Shown in pieces: positions 2,716-16,732 of a stretch of 64,000 nt of DNA. Every line of letters begins with the position of its first letter. Within the stretch, counting starts at the first letter, position 1. The stretch is taken from the NCBI GenBank assembly GCA_016699085.1, contig CP064958.1, positions 131,785 through 195,784 of the forward strand, read 5' to 3'. Source of the stretch: Candidatus Nomurabacteria bacterium. Lineage in GTDB: Bacteria > Patescibacteriota > Minisyncoccia > Phycocordibacterales > UBA9973. The notes beneath the pieces are model-generated. The model did not search any database, had not been told where the DNA came from, and saw only the letters and a program-made list of their open reading frames with translations. Made by a program: the position numbers and the translations under genes.

Positions 2716-2823
<108 letters not shown>

Positions 2824-2947: not shown

Positions 2948-3183
2948 AATATATTATATGTGATTTCCACATTTCCTAATAGGAATCGAATAATTAGTAC
3001 GTCTCGGCTCAACGCATTACTGCGCGTACACCTAACGCCTATCAACGTGATCATCTCTCACGATTCTCAAACGATTCCTCATCTTGAAGATGGCTTCCCT
3101 CTTAGATGCTTTCAGAGGTTATCCATGCCTGACATAGCTACCCTGCGTTGCCTTTGGCAAGACAGCAGGTACACCAGAGGTCA

Positions 3184-3215
<32 letters not shown>

Positions 3216-3359
3216 ACTTCTCAAGAATCAACGAGTGCAGTAGATAGGAGACCAACCTGTCTCACGACGGTTTGAACCCAGCTCGCGTACCTTTTTAATT
3301 AGCGAACAGCTAAACCCTTGGCAGCTTCTCCACCGCCAGGATAAGGTGAGCCGACATCG

Positions 3360-3665
3360 CTGTCGTTGTATTCTGGGGAGAAATAAATTTTACTTCTCCC
3401 CAGAAGCTTCTATCACTAGAAGGATCGGACTATATCTTCTTCCTCTTTCATATAAATATGAGTAGGAGATTGGCGTGTAGTCTCTGAGGGTTCCACGTGA
3501 GATGGCCGGCTTCGCCTATCTCATGTGGCCTTCCCTGCTGATTGTCTTATCAATGACGATAAGAGTTCCAGCATATAGCCAATTATTTTATTTTCCTCAC
3601 CGCGCTATCTACAACGCGATGAGGAAACGCTAATGACATTACTGTCATGGCACCCCGATATGTTA
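3360..3665 (-). other. Group I intron (ORF-less, ~306 nt) inserted in 23S domain V at the GGCACCU|CGAUGUCGG site (near E. coli position 2500, peptidyl-transferase region)
   Basis: The conserved exon sequence GGCACCT...CGATGTCGGCTC is interrupted by 306 nt. The 5' exon end GGCACCU can pair with the intron-internal GGGUGCC (P1 with a U-G wobble at the splice site). The insert ends in G (omega-G). A P7-like GACTA...TAGTC pairing is present (CAGAGACTACACG / ATATAGTCCGATCC). Confidence 0.6.
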
Positions 3666-3887
3666 AGGTGCCGAACTGCGCCGTCGATATGAACTCTTAG
3701 GCGCAACTAGCCTGTTATCCCCGGAGTAGCTTCTATCCGTTAATCTTCGGCCGCATCTAATGCGGACCATCGGTTCACTATGTTCTACTTTCGTACCTGC
3801 TCGGGATGTACCCCTTACAGTCAAGCTAGCTTGTGCCATTACACTATCGGCACGGTTTCCATACGCGCCTAGCTAACCTTAATAAAC

Positions 3888-3928
<41 letters not shown>

Positions 3929-4229
3929 ACCCACCAGATACTGTTTCTTTGCGTTTTTGCCGCAAGGATTAGAATATGCCACATGAAAGAGTGGTATTGC
4001 ACTGTCGACTCCACAGAAACCGAGATCTCTGCTTCAAAGTCTCCCACTTATGCTACGCAGCCACAAAACATACTCAATACCAAGTTGTAGTAAAGCTTCC
4101 GGGGTCTTTTCGTCTATCTGCACTTAACCGGCATCTTCACCGGTATTGTATTTTCACCGAGCTATTCCCCGAGACAGTTCTCCAGTCATTACACCATTCG
4201 TGCGCGTCGGAACTTACCCGACAAGGTAC

Positions 4230-4271
<42 letters not shown>

Positions 4272-4429
4272 AGGGCTTATATCAGTCAGCTCTTCACAGC
4301 CTTGCGGCTATGAAGAACCGCCGATATTTGACCTTCTCGCATTGGTCAGGTGTCACCCCCTATACATCCTCTTACGAGTTCGCAGGGAGCTGTGTTTTTG
4401 ATAAACAGTTGCCAGAGATACTTTCGCTG

Positions 4430-4748
4430 CGCCCCTTCCTACTTTAGTCTCAATAATTTTAGAATCATTGGAGGCTAAAGAGCATTCAACAATCTTACTC
4501 AATTGTAACTGTTACTTTTCTTTTAGGATCAGATAGGAAAGTTTTGCTCTTCAGAGCATTTTCTCTTTGAAAGAAAATTTCTTTTCCTTGCTTAACTATA
4601 ACAGTATCAATTAAAGTATTGTTTTCATCATAAATCTCAACTTTTGGAGATGTATGATTTTTTTCGCCAATGAATTTTATTGTAATCATTGTTTCCTCCT
4701 TTGTTAATTTTTGAAAAAAAAATTGAGAACAAAGTAGGAAGGGGAAGC
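4430..4748 (-). other. ~270-nt expansion of 23S helix 63 containing a translatable small ORF
   Basis: The region between the conserved CCGTAACTTTGG (E. coli ~1685) and GAAAGTATCTCTGGCAACTG (E. coli ~1750) is ~320 nt versus ~45-60 nt in E. coli. Its two ends are complementary (CCCCTTCCTACTTTG / CAAAGTAGGAAGGGG), forming the helix base. Confidence 0.55.
4495..4689 (-). CDS. Small ORF (64 aa) with a perfect Shine-Dalgarno, embedded in the 23S rRNA helix-63 expansion; function unknown
   Basis: The minus-strand sequence AACAAAGGAGGAAACAATG places AAGGAGG 5 nt upstream of the ATG. The ORF is MITIKFIGEKNHTSPKVEIYDENNTLIDTVIVKQGKEIFFQRENALKSKTFLSDPKRKVTVTIE. No homing-endonuclease motif is evident. 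Confidence 0.35.
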   Translation of the reverse strand: MITIKFIGEKNHTSPKVEIYDENNTLIDTVIVKQGKEIFFQRENALKSKTFLSDPKRKVTVTIE

Positions 4749-5299
4749 CTTATTCCAAAGTTACGGCTGCTTTTTTGCCGAGTTCCTTGGGGAACACTCA
4801 CTCGTTCGTCTTGGTCTTCTCGACCTGATCACCTGTGTCGGTTTGCGGTACGGTTTCTATATCATTAAGCTTAGAAAATTTTCTTGGAAGCGTGCTTTGT
4901 CTCATTGACAGTGGCGAACCACCATCTTTCTACTAACCTTGCATGTGCCATCAAAGGCAATGTGCGGATTTTCCTACACACCACGCTCAGCTCCTAAACA
5001 GAAATCCAATAATCTGCGAGACATACTACCCTTCGTCCTCTCATCGCATAATACAGAAGTGCAGGAATATTAACCTGCTGTCCATCAGGTCCGGCTCTCG
5101 CCATCCCCTTAGGCCCGACTAACCCTTGGCTGATTGTCATAGCCAAGGAAACCTTGATCTTTCGACGGGAGGGACTCTCACCCTCCTTGCGGTTACTTGT
5201 GCCAACATTCTTACTTCGCAACGCTCCACCGTGGGTCACCCCTTCGGCTTCAACGCGGTTACGAATACTCTCCTACCACTCGCGAACTTCATAAAGGAG

Positions 5300-5497
5300 A
5301 CAAGGTGCGTTTGTACACACCTTGCTCTAGAAAAGAAAATTGTATCGGGCACTTGCCTCATGTCGAGTGTCAACATGCGACTCGGCTGGAAGTATTTACC
5401 ACCAATCAAAATACAATCTTCTTTCCAATCTTCCAAAGAACATGGAGTGAATGATCAAATGAATCATTCTTTCTTTAATTTTCAACAAAGAAATTTT
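5300..5497 (-). other. ~190-nt AT-rich expansion segment at the tip of 23S helix 45
   Basis: Conserved ACCGAAACTGAGGATTCGTGAACTTCATAAAGGAGA and TCTCCTTTATGAAGTTCGCGAGTGGTAGGAGAG bracket an extra ~190 nt. The flanks ttcataaaggag / ctcctttatgaa pair as the helix base. Confidence 0.5.
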
Positions 5498-5596
5498 TCT
5501 CCTTTATGAAGTTCACGAATCCTCAGTTTCGGTAGTATGCTTAGCCCCGATTATCTACGGCGCGAGATCTCTTGATGAGTGAGCTGTTACGCTTTC

Positions 5597-5628
<32 letters not shown>

Positions 5629-6134
5629 TCATTGTCTAAGAAATTTCACATCCTCGACTTGCACTTAGCATACATTTAGGGACCTTAAATTGAGATCTGG
5701 GCTGTTTCCCTTTTGACTAACGGAGCTTCGCCCCCGTAGTCTAACTGCCATATTTTTAACTCTTGGTATTCGGAGTTTGATAGATGTCGCGAGATTGCTC
5801 CCTGTCGAAATCTTCCAGTGCTCTACCCCCAAGAGGAACACATGACGCTAGCCCTAAAGCTATTTCGGAGAGAACCAGCTATTACCAAGTTCGATAAGCT
5901 TTTCACTCCAACCCACAAGTCATCCGAGAGTATTGTACGGCTCACCGGTTCGGACCTCCAGCGTGATTTCTCACACCTTCATCCTGCTCATGGGTAGCTC
6001 ACCTGGCTTCGGGTCTCTAGTAGACTACCAATTACGCGCTATTAACACTTGGTTTCCCTGCAGCTCCACTCGTAAGAGTTTAGCTAAGCAGCATACTAGA
6101 ACTCGTTGGCTCATTCTTCAATAGGCACGCCGTG

Positions 6135-6390
6135 ACGGACTGCACACTATGTACATCAAATTTGTATTCTCTGTAATAAACAGGGTCTGATATCAAAACC
6201 CTGTCTTAATGAATTCAAAAAAAATCTATCCGTATATTTTAGGCACTCTCAGTAAATTGCTTCTACGTTTCAATACAATCGAAACATCCACAATTCGCCG
6301 ATATACCTTAGAACACGCACGTTCTAAATGTACGAACCTTTTAAATTCATTACAGAAAATACAAAACGATCTACACAAAGTTCAGCCCGC
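6135..6390 (-). other. ~230-nt AT-rich expansion in 23S domain I/II (between the CCTGAAACC...GGAGC block and the GACCCGAAGCC block)
   Basis: The distance between these conserved blocks is ~380 nt versus ~150 nt in E. coli. The extra sequence includes the hairpin acagggtctgatatcaaaaccctgt. Confidence 0.4.
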
Positions 6391-7201
6391 TCCGACTCCT
6401 TGTAAGCATATGGTTTCAGGTCTATTTCACTGTCCTTATCGGACTACTTTTCACCTTTCCCTCGCGGTACTAGTTCACTATCGATCTCTACACGTATTTA
6501 GCCTTGGCAGTTAGTTCTGCCGGATTCCTCCAAGCTATTCATGTCTTGAAGTACTCAAGAATGACAATAAAAAAGATATACTAATTTCGCTTACCGGGCT
6601 ATCACCGTCTGTGGCGTTGCTTTCCAACAACTTAAACTATTAGTACATTTTGTAACTTTCCACGTAATAAAACGTCATTGTCACCTTACAACCCCGACTT
6701 TATTTCTTGCGAAATAAAATTGGTTTGGGCTATTTCCATTTCGCTCGCCGCTACTTCGGAAATTTTGTCCTTGCGGACTTTGTTTTCTTTTCCTCCAGGT
6801 ACTGAGATGTTTCACTTCCCTGGGTATACTCTCTATTCATAAAGAACAGAGTCATCGAGGTTTACTCGATGGGGTTCCCCCATTCGGAGATCTTCGGATC
6901 AAAAGTTGCTAGGCACTTCCCCGAAGCTTATCGCAGCCTGCTACGTCCTTCATCGCCATGTAGAGTCAAGGCATCCACCATATGCTCTTACTTTCCTATT
7001 AGGAAATGTAAAAACCACATATATGACACATACACACTGGTTCTCAACATGTATGTGTCGGCGTACTCGCTTACTGTATTGCTCCGACCGCTCGTAGTTG
7101 CAATAAGGTTGTACGTTTTCTGTTTCCAGCGATTGAAAAGACCCCTTCGAACTACCCAGGATGAGTAAGTCCGAAAAAATAATTTTGCTGTAACAGGATT
7201 G

Positions 7202-7262: not shown

Positions 7263-7371
7263 CAAACTAAAACAAAAGAGTTTTAGATACCCCGCTTTTG
7301 GTTGGTTAATTTAGTCATCTTCATATCAGTGGGGATAGTATATATGAAGCCAAAATGGAAGTCAAGTATAA

Positions 7372-7402
7372 GAAAAGCCCTTGTATTTCAAAGGGCTTTT
7401 AA
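7372..7402. terminator. Terminator hairpin after the aldose-epimerase gene
   Basis: aaaagccctt-gtatttc-aaagggctttt with flanking A/T runs. Confidence 0.5.
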
Positions 7403-9917: not shown

Positions 9918-10562
9918 CTACATGTATTTTTCTACAGCCGGAATAAAAAATTGCTGAGAAAAATATTTAAAAATAACAGCATCGTAAATCGAAGTGATGT
10001 TAAACGCAATTCCGGCATACAGAAGACGCACATGCTCTTCAACTTCATTACCTTTGTCTAATATCTCAATAAGTTTTGGATAATGATCCCTTCCAGAGAT
10101 GACAAAAACATCGTTGTAATTTTTTGCTGCTGCACGGATAAGAGAAACACCACCAATATCAATCTTCTCAATAATTTTTTCATGAGTACTTCCATTTGCA
10201 ACTTCTTCTTCAAAAGGATACAAGTCAACCACCACAAGGTCAATTCCGATAATCCTATGTTCTGCCATCTGCTCCCTGTCGCTTTCATTGCCTCGACGAC
10301 TAAGTATGCCAGCGAAAACGAACGGGTGTAAAGTTTTTACTCTACCACCTAGGATTTCCGGGAATTTTGTAAGCTCTTCCACTTTTATAACTTTAATTCC
10401 AAGCCTCCAAATGTACTCAGCAGTTCCGCCGGTAGAAATTATATGCACACCTAATGCATGTAATCGACGCACAATTGGCTCTAGTCCTTCTTTGTTGTGG
10501 ACTGAAATCAGGGCATATTGAATTTTTTTATTCATGTTAAGTTGTTTTAGAATTTGCACCAC
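9918..10562 (-). CDS. Stand-alone IMP cyclohydrolase (MGS-like) domain protein, homologous to the N-terminal domain of PurH; no AICAR-transformylase domain
   Basis: ALISVHNKEGLEPIVRRLHALGVHIISTGGTAEY...ELTKFPEILGGRVKTLHPFVFAGILSRR...IDLVVVDLYPFEE...IDIGGVSLIRAAAKNYNDV matches the PurH IMPCH signature blocks (STGGTA, GGRVKTLHP, VVVNLYPF, IDIGGP..RAAAKN). The protein ends at 214 aa. Confidence 0.65.
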   Translation of the reverse strand: MVQILKQLNMNKKIQYALISVHNKEGLEPIVRRLHALGVHIISTGGTAEYIWRLGIKVIKVEELTKFPEILGGRVKTLHPFVFAGILSRRGNESDREQMAEHRIIGIDLVVVDLYPFEEEVANGSTHEKIIEKIDIGGVSLIRAAAKNYNDVFVISGRDHYPKLIEILDKGNEVEEHVRLLYAGIAFNITSIYDAVIFKYFSQQFFIPAVEKYM

Positions 10563-13517: not shown

Positions 13518-14795
13518 ATGAGAAAAATAATACTTTTTTTGGGAGATACAATCATGTTTGTTTTGGCTGGTTTCGCCATGCTCCTTTTGCGTTTTGGTAT
13601 CCATGTCAGCAGTCCTATTATCGAAGCCCACATCCAGGCTTTCATAGCTCTCTATGTGCTATGGCAGATTATCCTCTATATCTGCAACCTGTATGATTTT
13701 GAATTCATCAAGCCATCATTTGAAAGCATTCGAAATCTACTGCTCGCTATAAGCATTAGTCTCGTGAGCGGGTTTTTACTTTTTTACTTTGTACATTTTC
13801 CTGTCACTCCAAAAACTAATCTACTGCTCTTGGCACTCTCGTATGGTGTACTACTATTTGCATGGCGAAATATTTACTTTTCTATTTTTGCTCATAATTT
13901 CAAGAAACATATCGCTTTTATTGGTAACGCACCACTTGCCAATACTCTCATAGAAGAAATCGGACGTCACCCACATTTGGGATATGCCTACGAAGGAACC
14001 TACGAGTCTGTAGCCGAACTTATTGCAACAGGTCGTACGATAGATATTGTTGTCTATGGAAAACAAATCGAAAGCTCGGAGCTTGCGCATTTGATTGCCA
14101 ATCAATCACACGTACTTGATCTGAGGCAAGCATTTCAAAACATATTGCATCGCGTTCCTGTTGTACTTATGAACGATACGCTTGCGCTTCGTATTGTTGA
14201 AAATCGCGACACTGATCTTTATGAGTTTCTAGTACGCGGAATAGAAATAATTCTGGCACTTTGTATTCTCGTACTTACATCTCCATTATTACTCCTTGCT
14301 GCGATTGCAATACGAATAGAAGACTCGCGCAGTATTTTCTATAAACAAGAGCGCGTCGGACGACACGGCAAGCGATTTAGTATCATCAAACTGCAATCAA
14401 TGTATACCAATGCTGAAAAAAACGGTGCACAATGGGCAACACACAATGATAGTCGCATCACGCCAGTTGGAAAAATTTTACGCATTACCCATATCGATGA
14501 GATCCCACAAATGTGGAATGTGCTCAAGGGGGACATAGCCTTAGTCGGTCCGCGACCGGAGAGACCAGAGTTTGTGGAGAAATTAGACAAAGAGATACCC
14601 TACTACTTCTTGCGCCATACAATCAAACCAGGCTTCACAGGCTGGGCGCAAATCAAATTTCGTTACGCAAGAAGTGTCATGGATTCACAAGAAAAATTTG
14701 AGTACGATTTATACTACGTCAAAAATAGAAATTTCTTCCTCGATATTGGCATTATCCTAAAAACAATCCAGATCGTTTTTACCCACGGGGTTTAG
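13518..14795 (+). CDS. Polyprenyl-phosphate hexose-1-phosphate transferase (WbaP/WcaJ-like initiating 'bacterial sugar transferase')
   Basis: Multi-TM N-terminus, then a C-terminal catalytic block: RVGRHGKRFSIIKLQSM...NVLKGDIALVGPRPERPEFV...KPGFTGWAQI. An alternative start at 13554 has the SD GGGAGA. Confidence 0.85.
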   Translation: MRKIILFLGDTIMFVLAGFAMLLLRFGIHVSSPIIEAHIQAFIALYVLWQIILYICNLYDFEFIKPSFESIRNLLLAISISLVSGFLLFYFVHFPVTPKTNLLLLALSYGVLLFAWRNIYFSIFAHNFKKHIAFIGNAPLANTLIEEIGRHPHLGYAYEGTYESVAELIATGRTIDIVVYGKQIESSELAHLIANQSHVLDLRQAFQNILHRVPVVLMNDTLALRIVENRDTDLYEFLVRGIEIILALCILVLTSPLLLLAAIAIRIEDSRSIFYKQERVGRHGKRFSIIKLQSMYTNAEKNGAQWATHNDSRITPVGKILRITHIDEIPQMWNVLKGDIALVGPRPERPEFVEKLDKEIPYYFLRHTIKPGFTGWAQIKFRYARSVMDSQEKFEYDLYYVKNRNFFLDIGIILKTIQIVFTHGV

Positions 14796-16732
14796 AGATA
14801 TTTTTCTAATCGCTCAAGTGCTATCCAAAATCCTTCACCGCCGTTTTCATGACCTTGCCATATTTCTGGAATAAAAGAGCATGTAATACCTAGAGAATCT
14901 AAATTTTTTCGTAATTCATTAAAGTCAATTTCACCTTCTCCTACTTGTATCCCTTCTCCATTTACATCTTTTGCATCCACGACATGCAAATGAGCAGTAT
15001 ATTTTAAAATTTTCTTTGTAAATTCAGAGAAATCCCATCCGTAGGTATTGCAAGCCAATTTGGAATGTGAAGTATCAAAACAGATTCTGTACTTATACTT
15101 TTCACAAAAAGCAGCAATCTCATCTGGATCAAGGAAAAGATTGTGGTAGAGCTGTCCACCTAAAAGCCATGGGTACGGCGGCATTGTTTGAATGATAATT
15201 TCTACACCATCTTGATTAATGTTTGCGAGTCCATCTGCAATTCTTTCATACAATACTTGCCGTTCTTCTTTCGATAGTGGCTTGTCTTTTGTAAAACCAC
15301 CGGCATTGACCACAATAAGTGGCTTGTTTGCTTTACTAAAATGTTTTTTTAGCTCATTCGTAATAGAAACAACTCTCTGCAGTTCAGCAATTGAGCGTCG
15401 CCAATATATTTCATCTGAAGAAGCGAGGTTAAGTAAATGATCATCAGCAAATGTCTCAGGACTATGGACGATGAGATCCATTGCAAGTGGTTTAGGAAAA
15501 TGACTACTAATATCTTCAGTAAGATCGTTATAGCTTAAGTGAAATTCAAGCAAATCAGGATTAGTAAATTTATGCAATTCTTTATAATCATAGTAACGAA
15601 CAGGAATGCCCCAAGGTCTATTGAATGTGTAGCTCCGTGGTTCAAAATTTTTATCAAGTAAATCATTAAGATAAAAAAAATCTCCTTGACGCAAGCTGCG
15701 ACGAGCTTTACGATTGATAAGTTTCTCTTTCTGGTCTGGTTGAAGCCCTCGGCCAGGACTTTTTACTTCGATCATCTCCGGTGTAATCATGTCACCTTTT
15801 TTAATATCCCTTGTTGCAACCAAGCTTTTTGCCAAATTCGCTCTGTTCATTTTTTCCCCTTGGGTTAACTCTCTTTTTTTTGCTGTACCGAGTGATGCTT
15901 CCACTTGTCGAATTCCCTCAATCATTACCTTGAATTCATCTGGGGTGAGGCTAGCTTTATGGTCCGAACCTTCCATCGTACGATCAAAAGTTATATGCTT
16001 TTCAATTATTTTTGCGCCCCTTGCAACTGCAGCAATAGCAATGTTGATCCCCCGTTCGTGCCCGCTATACCCATACAATGCTGTTCCAAGTCTGCTCATA
16101 TATTGCAAATTAATATCTTGGAAAGGTGCAGGGTAGGTTGAATTACAGTGTAGCAGTATGTATTTTGCATTAAGCCTTTTTAAAAGATTATTTACTGCAA
16201 TGATCTCAGATTCTTGAGACATGCCAGTTGAACAAATGATTGGTTTTTTTGTTTTTACGATTTCTCTAATCAAATCATGATTTGTTAGATCGGCAGATGC
16301 TACTTTATACGTATGCATACCGTATGCTTCTAATTTCTTTAGGCTTTCCAAATCCCAGGGTGTGCAAAGTGGAAACATCCCAACCTCGCGTGCATAATCA
16401 AAAAGTTTAAACATTTGCTCATCTGCTAATTGGAATTTTGAAAGCAGATCAAGTGTGTACTGCGATGTTAAATTTTCTTTAATATCATTTGTTGTTCCCT
16501 TGTTAGCATAGAGTGACTCTATATCTCTCATCTGGAATTTCACACAATCAACCCCGGCTTCTTTGGCGGCATCAATCAATGCTTTGGCACGGTCGAAACT
16601 ACCATTATGATTGAGTCCAATTTCTGCAATGACAAAAACGGGCTCGCCGAGCCCAACATATCGGTCACCAAATTTAATCTTCTTGGGTGAACCAAATACA
16701 AAACGTTTCAACCTATCTTTAAGTGAAGCCAC
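14792..16732 (-). CDS. Nonulosonic-acid (sialic-acid-like) synthase, NeuB family with SAF domain, fused to a C-terminal xylose-isomerase-like TIM-barrel (sugar-phosphate isomerase/epimerase) domain
   Basis: N-terminal ~350 aa: PVFVIAEIGLNHNGSFDRAKALIDAAKEAGVDCVKFQ...ICSTGMS...YILLHCNSTYPAP... plus a SAF-like TRDIKKGDMITPEMIEVKSPGRGL. C-terminal ~270 aa: CFDTSHSKLACNTYGWDFSEF...HLHVVD...EGEIDF... resembles the AP-endonuclease-2 / sugar-phosphate isomerase fold. Confidence 0.75.
   Translation of the reverse strand: MASLKDRLKRFVFGSPKKIKFGDRYVGLGEPVFVIAEIGLNHNGSFDRAKALIDAAKEAGVDCVKFQMRDIESLYANKGTTNDIKENLTSQYTLDLLSKFQLADEQMFKLFDYAREVGMFPLCTPWDLESLKKLEAYGMHTYKVASADLTNHDLIREIVKTKKPIICSTGMSQESEIIAVNNLLKRLNAKYILLHCNSTYPAPFQDINLQYMSRLGTALYGYSGHERGINIAIAAVARGAKIIEKHITFDRTMEGSDHKASLTPDEFKVMIEGIRQVEASLGTAKKRELTQGEKMNRANLAKSLVATRDIKKGDMITPEMIEVKSPGRGLQPDQKEKLINRKARRSLRQGDFFYLNDLLDKNFEPRSYTFNRPWGIPVRYYDYKELHKFTNPDLLEFHLSYNDLTEDISSHFPKPLAMDLIVHSPETFADDHLLNLASSDEIYWRRSIAELQRVVSITNELKKHFSKANKPLIVVNAGGFTKDKPLSKEERQVLYERIADGLANINQDGVEIIIQTMPPYPWLLGGQLYHNLFLDPDEIAAFCEKYKYRICFDTSHSKLACNTYGWDFSEFTKKILKYTAHLHVVDAKDVNGEGIQVGEGEIDFNELRKNLDSLGITCSFIPEIWQGHENGGEGFWIALERLEKYL

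Follow-up and report, generated by a model that had tools for sequence, protein, structure and literature searches.

Intervening sequences (IVSs) of ribosomal RNA (rRNA) that carry open reading frames (ORFs) have been known since the 1990s, and the best-studied of their genes, the S23p gene of Coxiella, appears to be silent. IVSs replace the tips of rRNA helices and are cut by RNase III, and S23p ORFs lie on the sense strand of the IVS loops in the 23S genes of Leptospira, Coxiella, Xanthomonas and Brucella, where they have been known for decades (PMC4990558). The classical helices for RNase III-excised IVSs are helices 25, 45 and 9 (H25, H45 and H9) (PMC4990558). ORFs are also known from the rRNA insertions of the Candidate Phyla Radiation (CPR), in whose 23S genes short non-intron inserts at IVS sites are common (PMC11270868). 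Here, we analyse a 23S rRNA gene in a 64,000 nt stretch of Candidatus Nomurabacteria contig CP064958.1 (assembly GCA_016699085.1, positions 131,785 to 195,784 of the forward strand), the whole of which is called the window below. Helix 63 (H63) of this gene carries an insert that encloses a 64-codon ORF preceded by a perfect Shine-Dalgarno (SD) sequence. The reading that we favour, to which we give a probability of roughly 55%, is that the insert is an IVS-type hairpin at the tip of H63 that is excised by RNase III, and that its loop is an mRNA carrying a genuine small protein gene. The parts of the insert, in the direction of transcription, are as follows.

4432 to 4744, minus strand: the IVS-type hairpin insert in helix 63 as a whole, 313 nt, 29.7% GC (Rfam alignment, MAFFT and folding).
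4722 to 4744, minus strand: 5′ arm of the basal stem, CCCCUUCCUACUUUGUUCUCAAU, the presumed RNase III substrate, pairing with 4454 to 4432.
4695 to 4702, minus strand: Shine-Dalgarno-like sequence AAAGGAGG, followed by the 5 nt spacer AAACA and the ATG at 4689 (read in the sequence); predicted to be 88–96% paired with 4474 to 4470.
4495 to 4689, minus strand, which is the rRNA sense strand: the 64-codon ORF with its TAA stop at 4497 to 4495 (ORF translation).
4470 to 4474, minus strand: CCUCC, an 'anti-SD mimic' in the 3′ untranslated part of the insert just past the stop codon, the predicted partner of the SD.
4432 to 4454, minus strand: 3′ arm of the basal stem, AUUGAGACUAAAGUAGGAAGGGG, pairing with 4744 to 4722.

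Three independent lines of evidence, namely the codon pattern, the placement of the SD and a homologue, indicate that the ORF is probably, even very probably, a genuine gene. A frame-specific codon log-odds score was trained on the 49 ORFs of at least 150 aa in the window. The small ORF scored 0.406 bits per codon, compared with 0.397 ± 0.136 for random 64-codon windows of these 49 host genes, and its other two frames scored −0.50 and −0.79, values typical of real genes read out of frame. Because any ORF is stop-free by definition, two extra controls were added. When the letters of the ORF were shuffled 1.37 million times, the given frame stayed open in 2367 cases (0.17%), and these open shuffles had a mean score of 0.039 ± 0.109 and a maximum of 0.369, none of them reaching 0.406. 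In real genes, 1.2% of 431 stop-free wrong-frame stretches of 40 or more codons reached that value. With respect to the SD, the GGAGG of the insert is the only one in the window that is correctly spaced before a free-standing ORF. When the insert was dinucleotide-shuffled 20,000 times, 2.2% of the shuffles contained an ATG ORF of 64 aa or more, and 0.1% contained GGAGG followed after 4–9 nt by an ATG that opens an ORF of 30 aa or longer. A previous sequence-only reading of this DNA had reported the ORF on the rRNA strand with its SD and 5 nt spacer before the ATG, and had treated it as real coding sequence; the ORF lies exactly where it was placed, and codon score, shuffles and homologue all bear out its coding character.

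The same figures bear on the possibility that the ORF arose by chance, that GGAGG is merely the strand of a stem that pairs with CCUCC, and that no protein is made. We regard this as very improbable. It would fit the 2.2% of shuffles with an equally long ORF, the predicted pairing of GGAGG, the low confidence of the AlphaFold2 model, and the lack of a match to any family, structure, phage or plasmid. It is difficult to reconcile with a joint SD-plus-ORF probability of 0.1% or less, with a coding score at the median of host genes that 0 of the 2367 stop-free shuffles attain, or with an independent 62 aa homologue that aligns from Met1.

This homologue, P0004, comes from an ENA metagenome assembly and was found by an exhaustive phmmer search of 1.84 billion representative proteins (E = 1.8e-4). 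The two proteins align from Met1 to the C-terminus at 46% identity, with one 1-residue and one 3-residue gap, and the Smith-Waterman score has a z of 17.5 against composition-matched shuffles. Both are hydrophilic and Cys-free, with masses of 7.2–7.4 kDa, a pI of 9.0 and a single conserved His. That frame, start and length have been kept despite a divergence to 46% identity argues for purifying selection on a protein. P0004 is the only called gene (285–473) on a contig of 779 nt; the shortness of the contig and its approximately 300 nt of gene-free flanks are compatible with a location in H63 of a 23S gene, and say nothing more. A word-indexed search of 5.8 billion clusters yielded no relative of the peptide, and a two-sequence profile made from the ORF product and P0004 again recovered P0004 alone. 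Two further candidates were rejected. The matches in two Flavobacterium genome contigs reflect an 8-residue coincidence (DENNTLID) in a 257 aa membrane protein. A 92 aa metagenome protein beside a polyprenyl synthase shares PKVEIYDEN over 29 aligned columns and is not in rRNA (Rfam negative); it was not accepted as a homologue because the search pattern itself had selected it.

The predicted product has 64 aa, a mass of 7.4 kDa and a pI of 9.05; it is hydrophilic (GRAVY −0.45, with a top Kyte-Doolittle value of 0.04 over a 19-residue window) and contains one His and no Cys. Its predicted tryptic peptides include VEIYDENNTLIDTVIVK and EIFFQR. The AlphaFold2 model, which has five beta strands and lacks helices, is of low confidence (pLDDT 54), and because of this low value a Foldseek comparison with the PDB was uninformative. 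Pfam gave no match better than E = 0.1 and only two noise matches at E ≤ 10, no match was found in PHROGs, NCBIfam, PADLOC or the PDB sequences, and the product was found neither in viral contigs nor, by six-frame tblastn, in phages and plasmids. Homology searches and structure prediction, the check that the sequence-only reading had proposed for the peptide, have therefore supplied one homologue, but a low-confidence model and no family. The product is not an S23p protein, as it has no PF05635 match and is modelled as all-beta rather than as a four-helix bundle. Searches of Pfam, NCBIfam and PHROGs for LAGLIDADG, GIY-YIG and HNH homing endonucleases were negative, in agreement with the absence of these signatures noted in the sequence-only reading. 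A type I toxin was considered and ruled out for want of a hydrophobic segment; the SD-masking architecture described below is the only point of resemblance to that class.

The sole lead on the identity of the protein is a weak resemblance to the beta-sandwich of the PPC (pre-peptidase C-terminal) domain. Searches with phmmer matched two PPC-repeat proteins, P0001 and P0002, at E = 2.5e-8 and 1.1e-7, values that are summed over repeats, and hhalign aligned residues 12–52 with a single PPC repeat at 87% probability over 38 columns. The motif in common with the PPC repeats is SP-x-V-x-I-Y-D-x-x-G/N-x-L-x-D. Direct hmmscan gave no PPC (PF04151) match for the product.

The position of the insert within the rRNA is well defined. 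The H63 stem of the Rfam model is matched by CCCCUUCCUACUU and AGUAGGAAGGGG, between which 288 nt replace the 3 nt loop of the model, and alignment to E. coli rrlH with MAFFT puts approximately 270 extra nt between E. coli positions 1704 and 1769. The basal stem consists of 15 bp, one mismatch and 7 bp (22 bp in all) in both the minimum-energy and the centroid folds, so that the helix-63 expansion of about 270 nt with pairing flanks claimed in the sequence-only reading is upheld by both placements and by the stem. The insert as a whole folds at −91.9 kcal/mol (z = −6.8 against shuffles), and the pattern of the stem arms has no matches in the window besides the two arms themselves. GC content is 0.29–0.35 inside the insert, compared with 0.45–0.54 in the adjoining rRNA. 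As in an IVS, the extra sequence stands in place of the loop of a surface helix, and its complementary termini are predicted to form a long double-stranded stem suited to RNase III. H63 is not among the recurrent IVS helices H9, H25 and H45, and a full-text literature search yielded no account of a bacterial IVS at H63.

Terminal inverted repeats of 22 bp might also suggest mobile DNA resembling a miniature inverted-repeat transposable element or an insertion sequence, or else a homing-type cassette in the rRNA gene, with the ORF as a mobility or addiction gene, and the rRNA genes of the CPR are full of mobile insertions (PMC11270868). We consider this the least credible of all the explanations. 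No second copy of the insert, of its inverted repeat or of the peptide was found in the window, and the flanks, as read in the sequence, show no target-site duplication at the junctions. No Rfam group I or group II intron fold was detected in 4432 to 4744 at the gathering threshold, Intron_gpI being found solely at 3406 to 3628. The product contains no nuclease, transposase or defence domain; at 64 aa with one His and no Cys it is too small for the known homing-endonuclease folds, and with no hydrophobic segment it is not a type I toxin. The suggestion in the sequence-only reading that the insert is the remnant of a mobile element consequently found no positive support in the search for copies or at the junctions.

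Folding of the insert places the SD in a helix of the insert's own. GGAGG is predicted to pair with CCUCC (4474 to 4470) with a probability of 0.83–0.96 in four sequence contexts, including one from which the basal stem was removed, and the AUG is placed in a 6 bp hairpin. Because CCTCC arises by chance in about 4% of shuffles, the mask is suggestive and unproven. Such masking would keep ribosomes off the nascent pre-rRNA and make translation weak or conditional. The sequence-only reading had allowed that the SD-like sequence might be explained as part of a conserved rRNA helix; it is not, but its predicted pairing with CCUCC does put it in a stem of the insert.

A second pairing involves the same region. 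The SD region AAAGGAGGAA (4693 to 4702) is a 9/10 near-repeat of AAAGUAGGAA (4437 to 4446) in the 3′ arm, both on the minus strand, and the 5′ arm accordingly has two alternative partners: the SD region, in a local pairing of −12.9 kcal/mol, or the 3′ arm. The 5′ arm segment UUCCUACUUUG can pair locally with CAAAGGAGG before the 3′ arm is transcribed. This dual pairing could be a co-transcriptional switch or a coincidence, the chance of which we roughly estimate at 10–30%.

How the ORF would be transcribed and released depends on the rRNA gene that hosts it, and on the other features of that gene, which are listed here from the 5S end.

2717 to 2822, minus strand: 5S rRNA, 106 nt, with helix IV / loop D reduced (Rfam RF00001, 73.6 bits).
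2955 to 2985, minus strand: 3′ strand of the processing stem, pairing with about 7023 to 6993.
2975 to 7001, minus strand: the 23S rRNA gene with the insert in H63 (2241 bits to Rfam RF02541 over model positions 1–2925).
3360 to 3665, minus strand: group I intron without an ORF, after about E. coli position 2500 (Rfam RF00028, 80.5 bits, 3406 to 3628).
5240 to 5521, minus strand: helix-45 IVS-type hairpin, about 220 nt, without an ORF (Rfam model positions ~1205–1226).
6134 to 6373, minus strand: helix-25 IVS-type hairpin, about 240 nt, without an ORF (after model position 583, E. coli position 555).
7337 to 7365, minus strand: promoter-like TTGACT, 17 nt, TATACT upstream of the 23S gene (consensus scan, 10/12 matches).

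At 4027 nt, the 23S gene is approximately 1100 nt longer than the Rfam model of 2925 nt; across aligned columns it is 68% identical to E. coli rrlH (MAFFT). It holds four inserts, the hairpins in H25, H45 and H63 and the group I intron, and the H63 insert is therefore not the isolated 'expansion segment' that the sequence-only reading had supposed but one of three IVS-type hairpins in a gene that also carries an intron. The H25 and H45 inserts are AT-rich with long, near-perfect closing stems; their folds have z scores of −9.1 and −9.9, respectively, and the basal stem of the H45 insert exceeds 20 bp. The H25 insert contains no ORF and the H45 insert no credible one, which leaves H63 as the only one of the three hairpins with an ORF. 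The H45 stem holds AAAGGAGA paired with UCUCCUUU. The idea that the three hairpins are copies of one element was rejected, as they show no similarity to one another above that of shuffled controls. The group I intron appears as a 306 nt gap in the E. coli alignment, and every frame in it is closed; several group I intron sites in CPR 23S genes are unreported from other bacteria (PMC11270868).

The likeness of the H63 insert to its neighbours bears on a further alternative, in which the insert stays in the mature 50S subunit as a stable expansion segment, equivalent to a bacterial ES27, and the ORF is translated from precursor or decay fragments or never. ES27 lies at H63, a helix of the solvent face of the large subunit, and in E. 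coli this helix tolerates the Tn5 insertion I25 (PMC2441807); furthermore, nothing in the sequence proves that cleavage occurs. We nevertheless consider retention quite improbable. The interior of the insert is AT-rich (about 28–30% GC) and mRNA-like, compared with 45–54% GC in the body of the rRNA, and the insert has a stem of 20 bp or more closing a loop of loose structure, as do the inserts in H25 and H45, which are classical sites of excised IVSs. CPR-type ribosomes also tend to lose H63 rather than to enlarge it (PMC9297842).

Our data are more in keeping with release of the insert from the rRNA precursor. The ORF lies inside the 23S gene on the same strand, and would be transcribed solely as part of pre-23S/5S rRNA from the rRNA promoter. 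The promoter-like site at 7365 to 7337, which is preceded by the terminator-like hairpin of the upstream gene at 7400 to 7373, is the likely source of the sole transcript that covers it. From the sequence, the ORF has no usable promoter of its own; a candidate internal promoter at 4707 to 4679 was rejected, since its −10 box falls inside the ORF. The leader and trailer of the 23S gene form 31 consecutive pairs in RNAcofold and duplexfold, bracketing the 23S rRNA, and this predicted stem of approximately 31 bp is of the classical RNase III processing type. By analogy with that stem, and with the IVSs of H25 and H45, RNase III would also cut the 22 bp basal stem of the insert. Cleavage would divide the 23S rRNA at what is left of H63, a minimal stub, and would free an RNA of about 290 nt, which could then serve as an mRNA. 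Of the two suggestions made in the sequence-only reading, synthesis of a protein from processed rRNA precursor fragments is thus the best-supported mechanism.

Initiation on such an RNA would differ from that of the other genes in the window. Not even a 4-mer SD core is found in the 20 nt upstream of any of the 49 ORFs of at least 150 aa. TAT[AG][ACG]T boxes of the extended −10-like kind, often with TG before them (TGnTATACT or TATAGT), instead show a peak at 6 nt between box and ATG. A peak at this distance is the signature of leaderless mRNAs, and suggests that leaderless transcripts are the norm in this organism. Within the insert, the AUG would lie approximately 45–55 nt from any possible 5′ end, and leaderless initiation would therefore be impossible. 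The inability of a leaderless start to serve an internal AUG would explain why there is a single strong SD in 64 kb. In both the precursor and the folded fragment the SD would be masked by CCUCC and the AUG held in its 6 bp hairpin, so translation would be low or conditional. The product would be a 7.4 kDa, basic, soluble and probably all-beta protein with a weak likeness to the PPC beta-sandwich, and we would guess it to be a passenger, whether selfish or neutral, and not a factor that the ribosome needs.

The host itself has traits like those of the CPR, and of the Parcubacteria in particular. Its 5S rRNA has 5 nt in place of the model's 17 at helix IV / loop D, and H98 is missing from its 23S rRNA in the region of about 3040 to 3060; reduction of 5S helix IV / loop D and loss of H98 are the '5Gap1' and '23Gap4' traits of CPR/Parcubacteria (PMC9297842). 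The many rRNA inserts and the unlinked 16S gene point in the same direction. These traits are consistent with membership of the CPR and are not exclusive to it (PMC9297842). There is no 16S rRNA or tRNA gene in the window, and none within 57 kb upstream of the 23S gene; the 23S-5S unit seemingly has its own promoter and is unlinked from the 16S gene. Parcubacteria typically lack H63, and only 48% of their 16S genes were found to carry the anti-SD motif (PMC9297842).

Several observations weigh against a translated gene in an excised IVS. The host shows no use of SDs, and CPR lineages whose rRNAs are similarly reduced often lack the anti-SD (PMC9297842), so the GGAGG may be a non-functional SD here. 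Both the SD and the AUG are predicted to be base-paired in all of the contexts modelled, including that with the basal stem removed, which counts against efficient translation. The GC content of the ORF is 27.6%, compared with 39.3% in host genes. In the Coxiella precedent, the ORF of the IVS is apparently untranslated and decaying (PMC4990558). Finally, a single full-length homologue was found among about 15 billion proteins, and conservation of the rRNA-nested arrangement is putative.

Most of these points would be accommodated if the IVS were real and its gene a silent or decaying passenger, gained horizontally from an SD-using donor and left untranslated, as has been argued for S23p of Coxiella (PMC4990558). 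The low GC content of the ORF, the presence of a single SD in 64 kb where the genome otherwise lacks them, the predicted sequestration of SD and AUG, and the frequent absence of the anti-SD from Parcubacteria-like lineages (PMC9297842) all favour this explanation, which is the most plausible of the alternatives, though still unlikely in our view. A decaying relic would not be expected to keep a frame intact over 64 codons at 28% GC, when just 0.17% of matched shuffles stay open, and the frame-specific codon pattern, equal to that of host genes, is unexpected both for a relic and for a recent import. The homologue, which at 46% identity keeps start, length and charge, further implies long-term purifying selection somewhere in the family. 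For these reasons we continue to prefer an excised IVS with a translated gene.

A bolder proposal may be made, although we hold it to be distinctly unlikely. Here, the ORF would belong to a conserved family of tiny proteins that live only in H63 of an under-sampled, SD-less, CPR-like lineage and are made from a by-product of rRNA processing by the cell's single SD-dependent initiation, gated by the helix between the SD and the anti-SD mimic, which is opened on RNase III processing. The target of such a protein might be the ribosome itself, perhaps where H63 is broken off to a stub. Genes of this family would be missed systematically by annotation pipelines, in which rRNA genes are masked, and this would explain the finding of one homologue among about 15 billion proteins.

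The host lineage is poorly sampled. The aldose-epimerase gene next to the 23S gene has one close relative, with 78% amino acid and 87% nucleotide identity, in a contig from the Logan assembly of sample DRR528613 (L006). Positions 1 to 1497 of that contig correspond to 8529 to 7042 of the window, and the order of genes upstream of the 23S gene is alike in the two. The contig stops 41 nt short of the start of the 23S gene, and the H63 region of this relative should be present in the same sample. Elsewhere in the window, on the minus strand, 14792 to 16732 encodes a 646 aa fusion of a NeuB/SAF (sialic-acid-synthase-like) part with a xylose-isomerase-like TIM barrel, and 9918 to 10562 encodes a 214 aa protein that has an MGS domain, covers no more of the AICARFT/IMPCHase profile than its first ~60 positions, and may be a truncated purH.

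Whether the ORFs of IVSs are translated can be put to a cleaner test at this locus, where an optimal SD with optimal spacing would stay on the released fragment. The host-like codon usage of the ORF, the diverged full-length homologue and a host that otherwise ignores SDs make the test cleaner still. If the ORF is translated, a by-product of rRNA processing can act as an mRNA, SD-dependent initiation persists in a genome of the leaderless type, and the masking of rRNA during annotation hides real genes. H63, the ES27 site, would in addition join the short list of bacterial 23S helices that accept IVS-type inserts.

Among known systems, another SD and ORF masked by rRNA structure on the sense strand of a 23S gene is the E-peptide minigene of E. 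coli, reportedly described by Tenson, DeBlasio and Mankin in 1996. This minigene is said to consist of five codons in the conserved rRNA core, to be translatable only from rRNA fragments and to have been seen only on over-expression of a fragment; here, in contrast, 64 codons lie in a dedicated insert. ES27L occupies the same structural site, H63, but it is retained, structured and non-coding, whereas the present insert is AT-rich, coding and probably excised.

The rRNA insertions of the CPR resemble those described here in that there are several per 23S gene, with short non-intron inserts at IVS sites and group I introns in the 3′ half, and in that their hosts show CPR-like rRNA reductions (PMC11270868). 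Of the ORFs with known Pfam domains in CPR 23S inserts, 99% encode LAGLIDADG or GIY-YIG proteins, and a few encode S23p (PMC11270868). The ORF in H63 differs from these, as it encodes neither a homing endonuclease nor S23p and lies in an insert without an intron fold. Orphan ORFs of this kind would have gone unreported in that survey because only ORFs with Pfam domains were classified (PMC11270868). The sequence-only reading had called a gene nested in an rRNA unusual. Such genes are indeed uncommon, but the S23p ORFs of IVSs and the ORFs of CPR insertions mean that they are not unprecedented.

The closest likeness is to the S23p IVSs (PF05635, 23S_rRNA_IVP), which share the hairpin at a helix tip, the stem of more than 20 bp, the sense-strand ORF in the loop and the lack of a promoter of its own. 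They differ in their sites, which are H45, H25 or H9 rather than H63, and in their product, a four-helix bundle of about 120 aa compared with a predicted all-beta protein of 64 aa that has no PF05635 match. In the S23p IVS of Coxiella a weak SD is removed by cleavage, whereas here a perfect SD would stay on the released fragment. ORF-bearing IVSs as such are already known; this one differs in its H63 site, in its product from an orphan family of two members, and in a perfect SD that would be kept on the fragment released.

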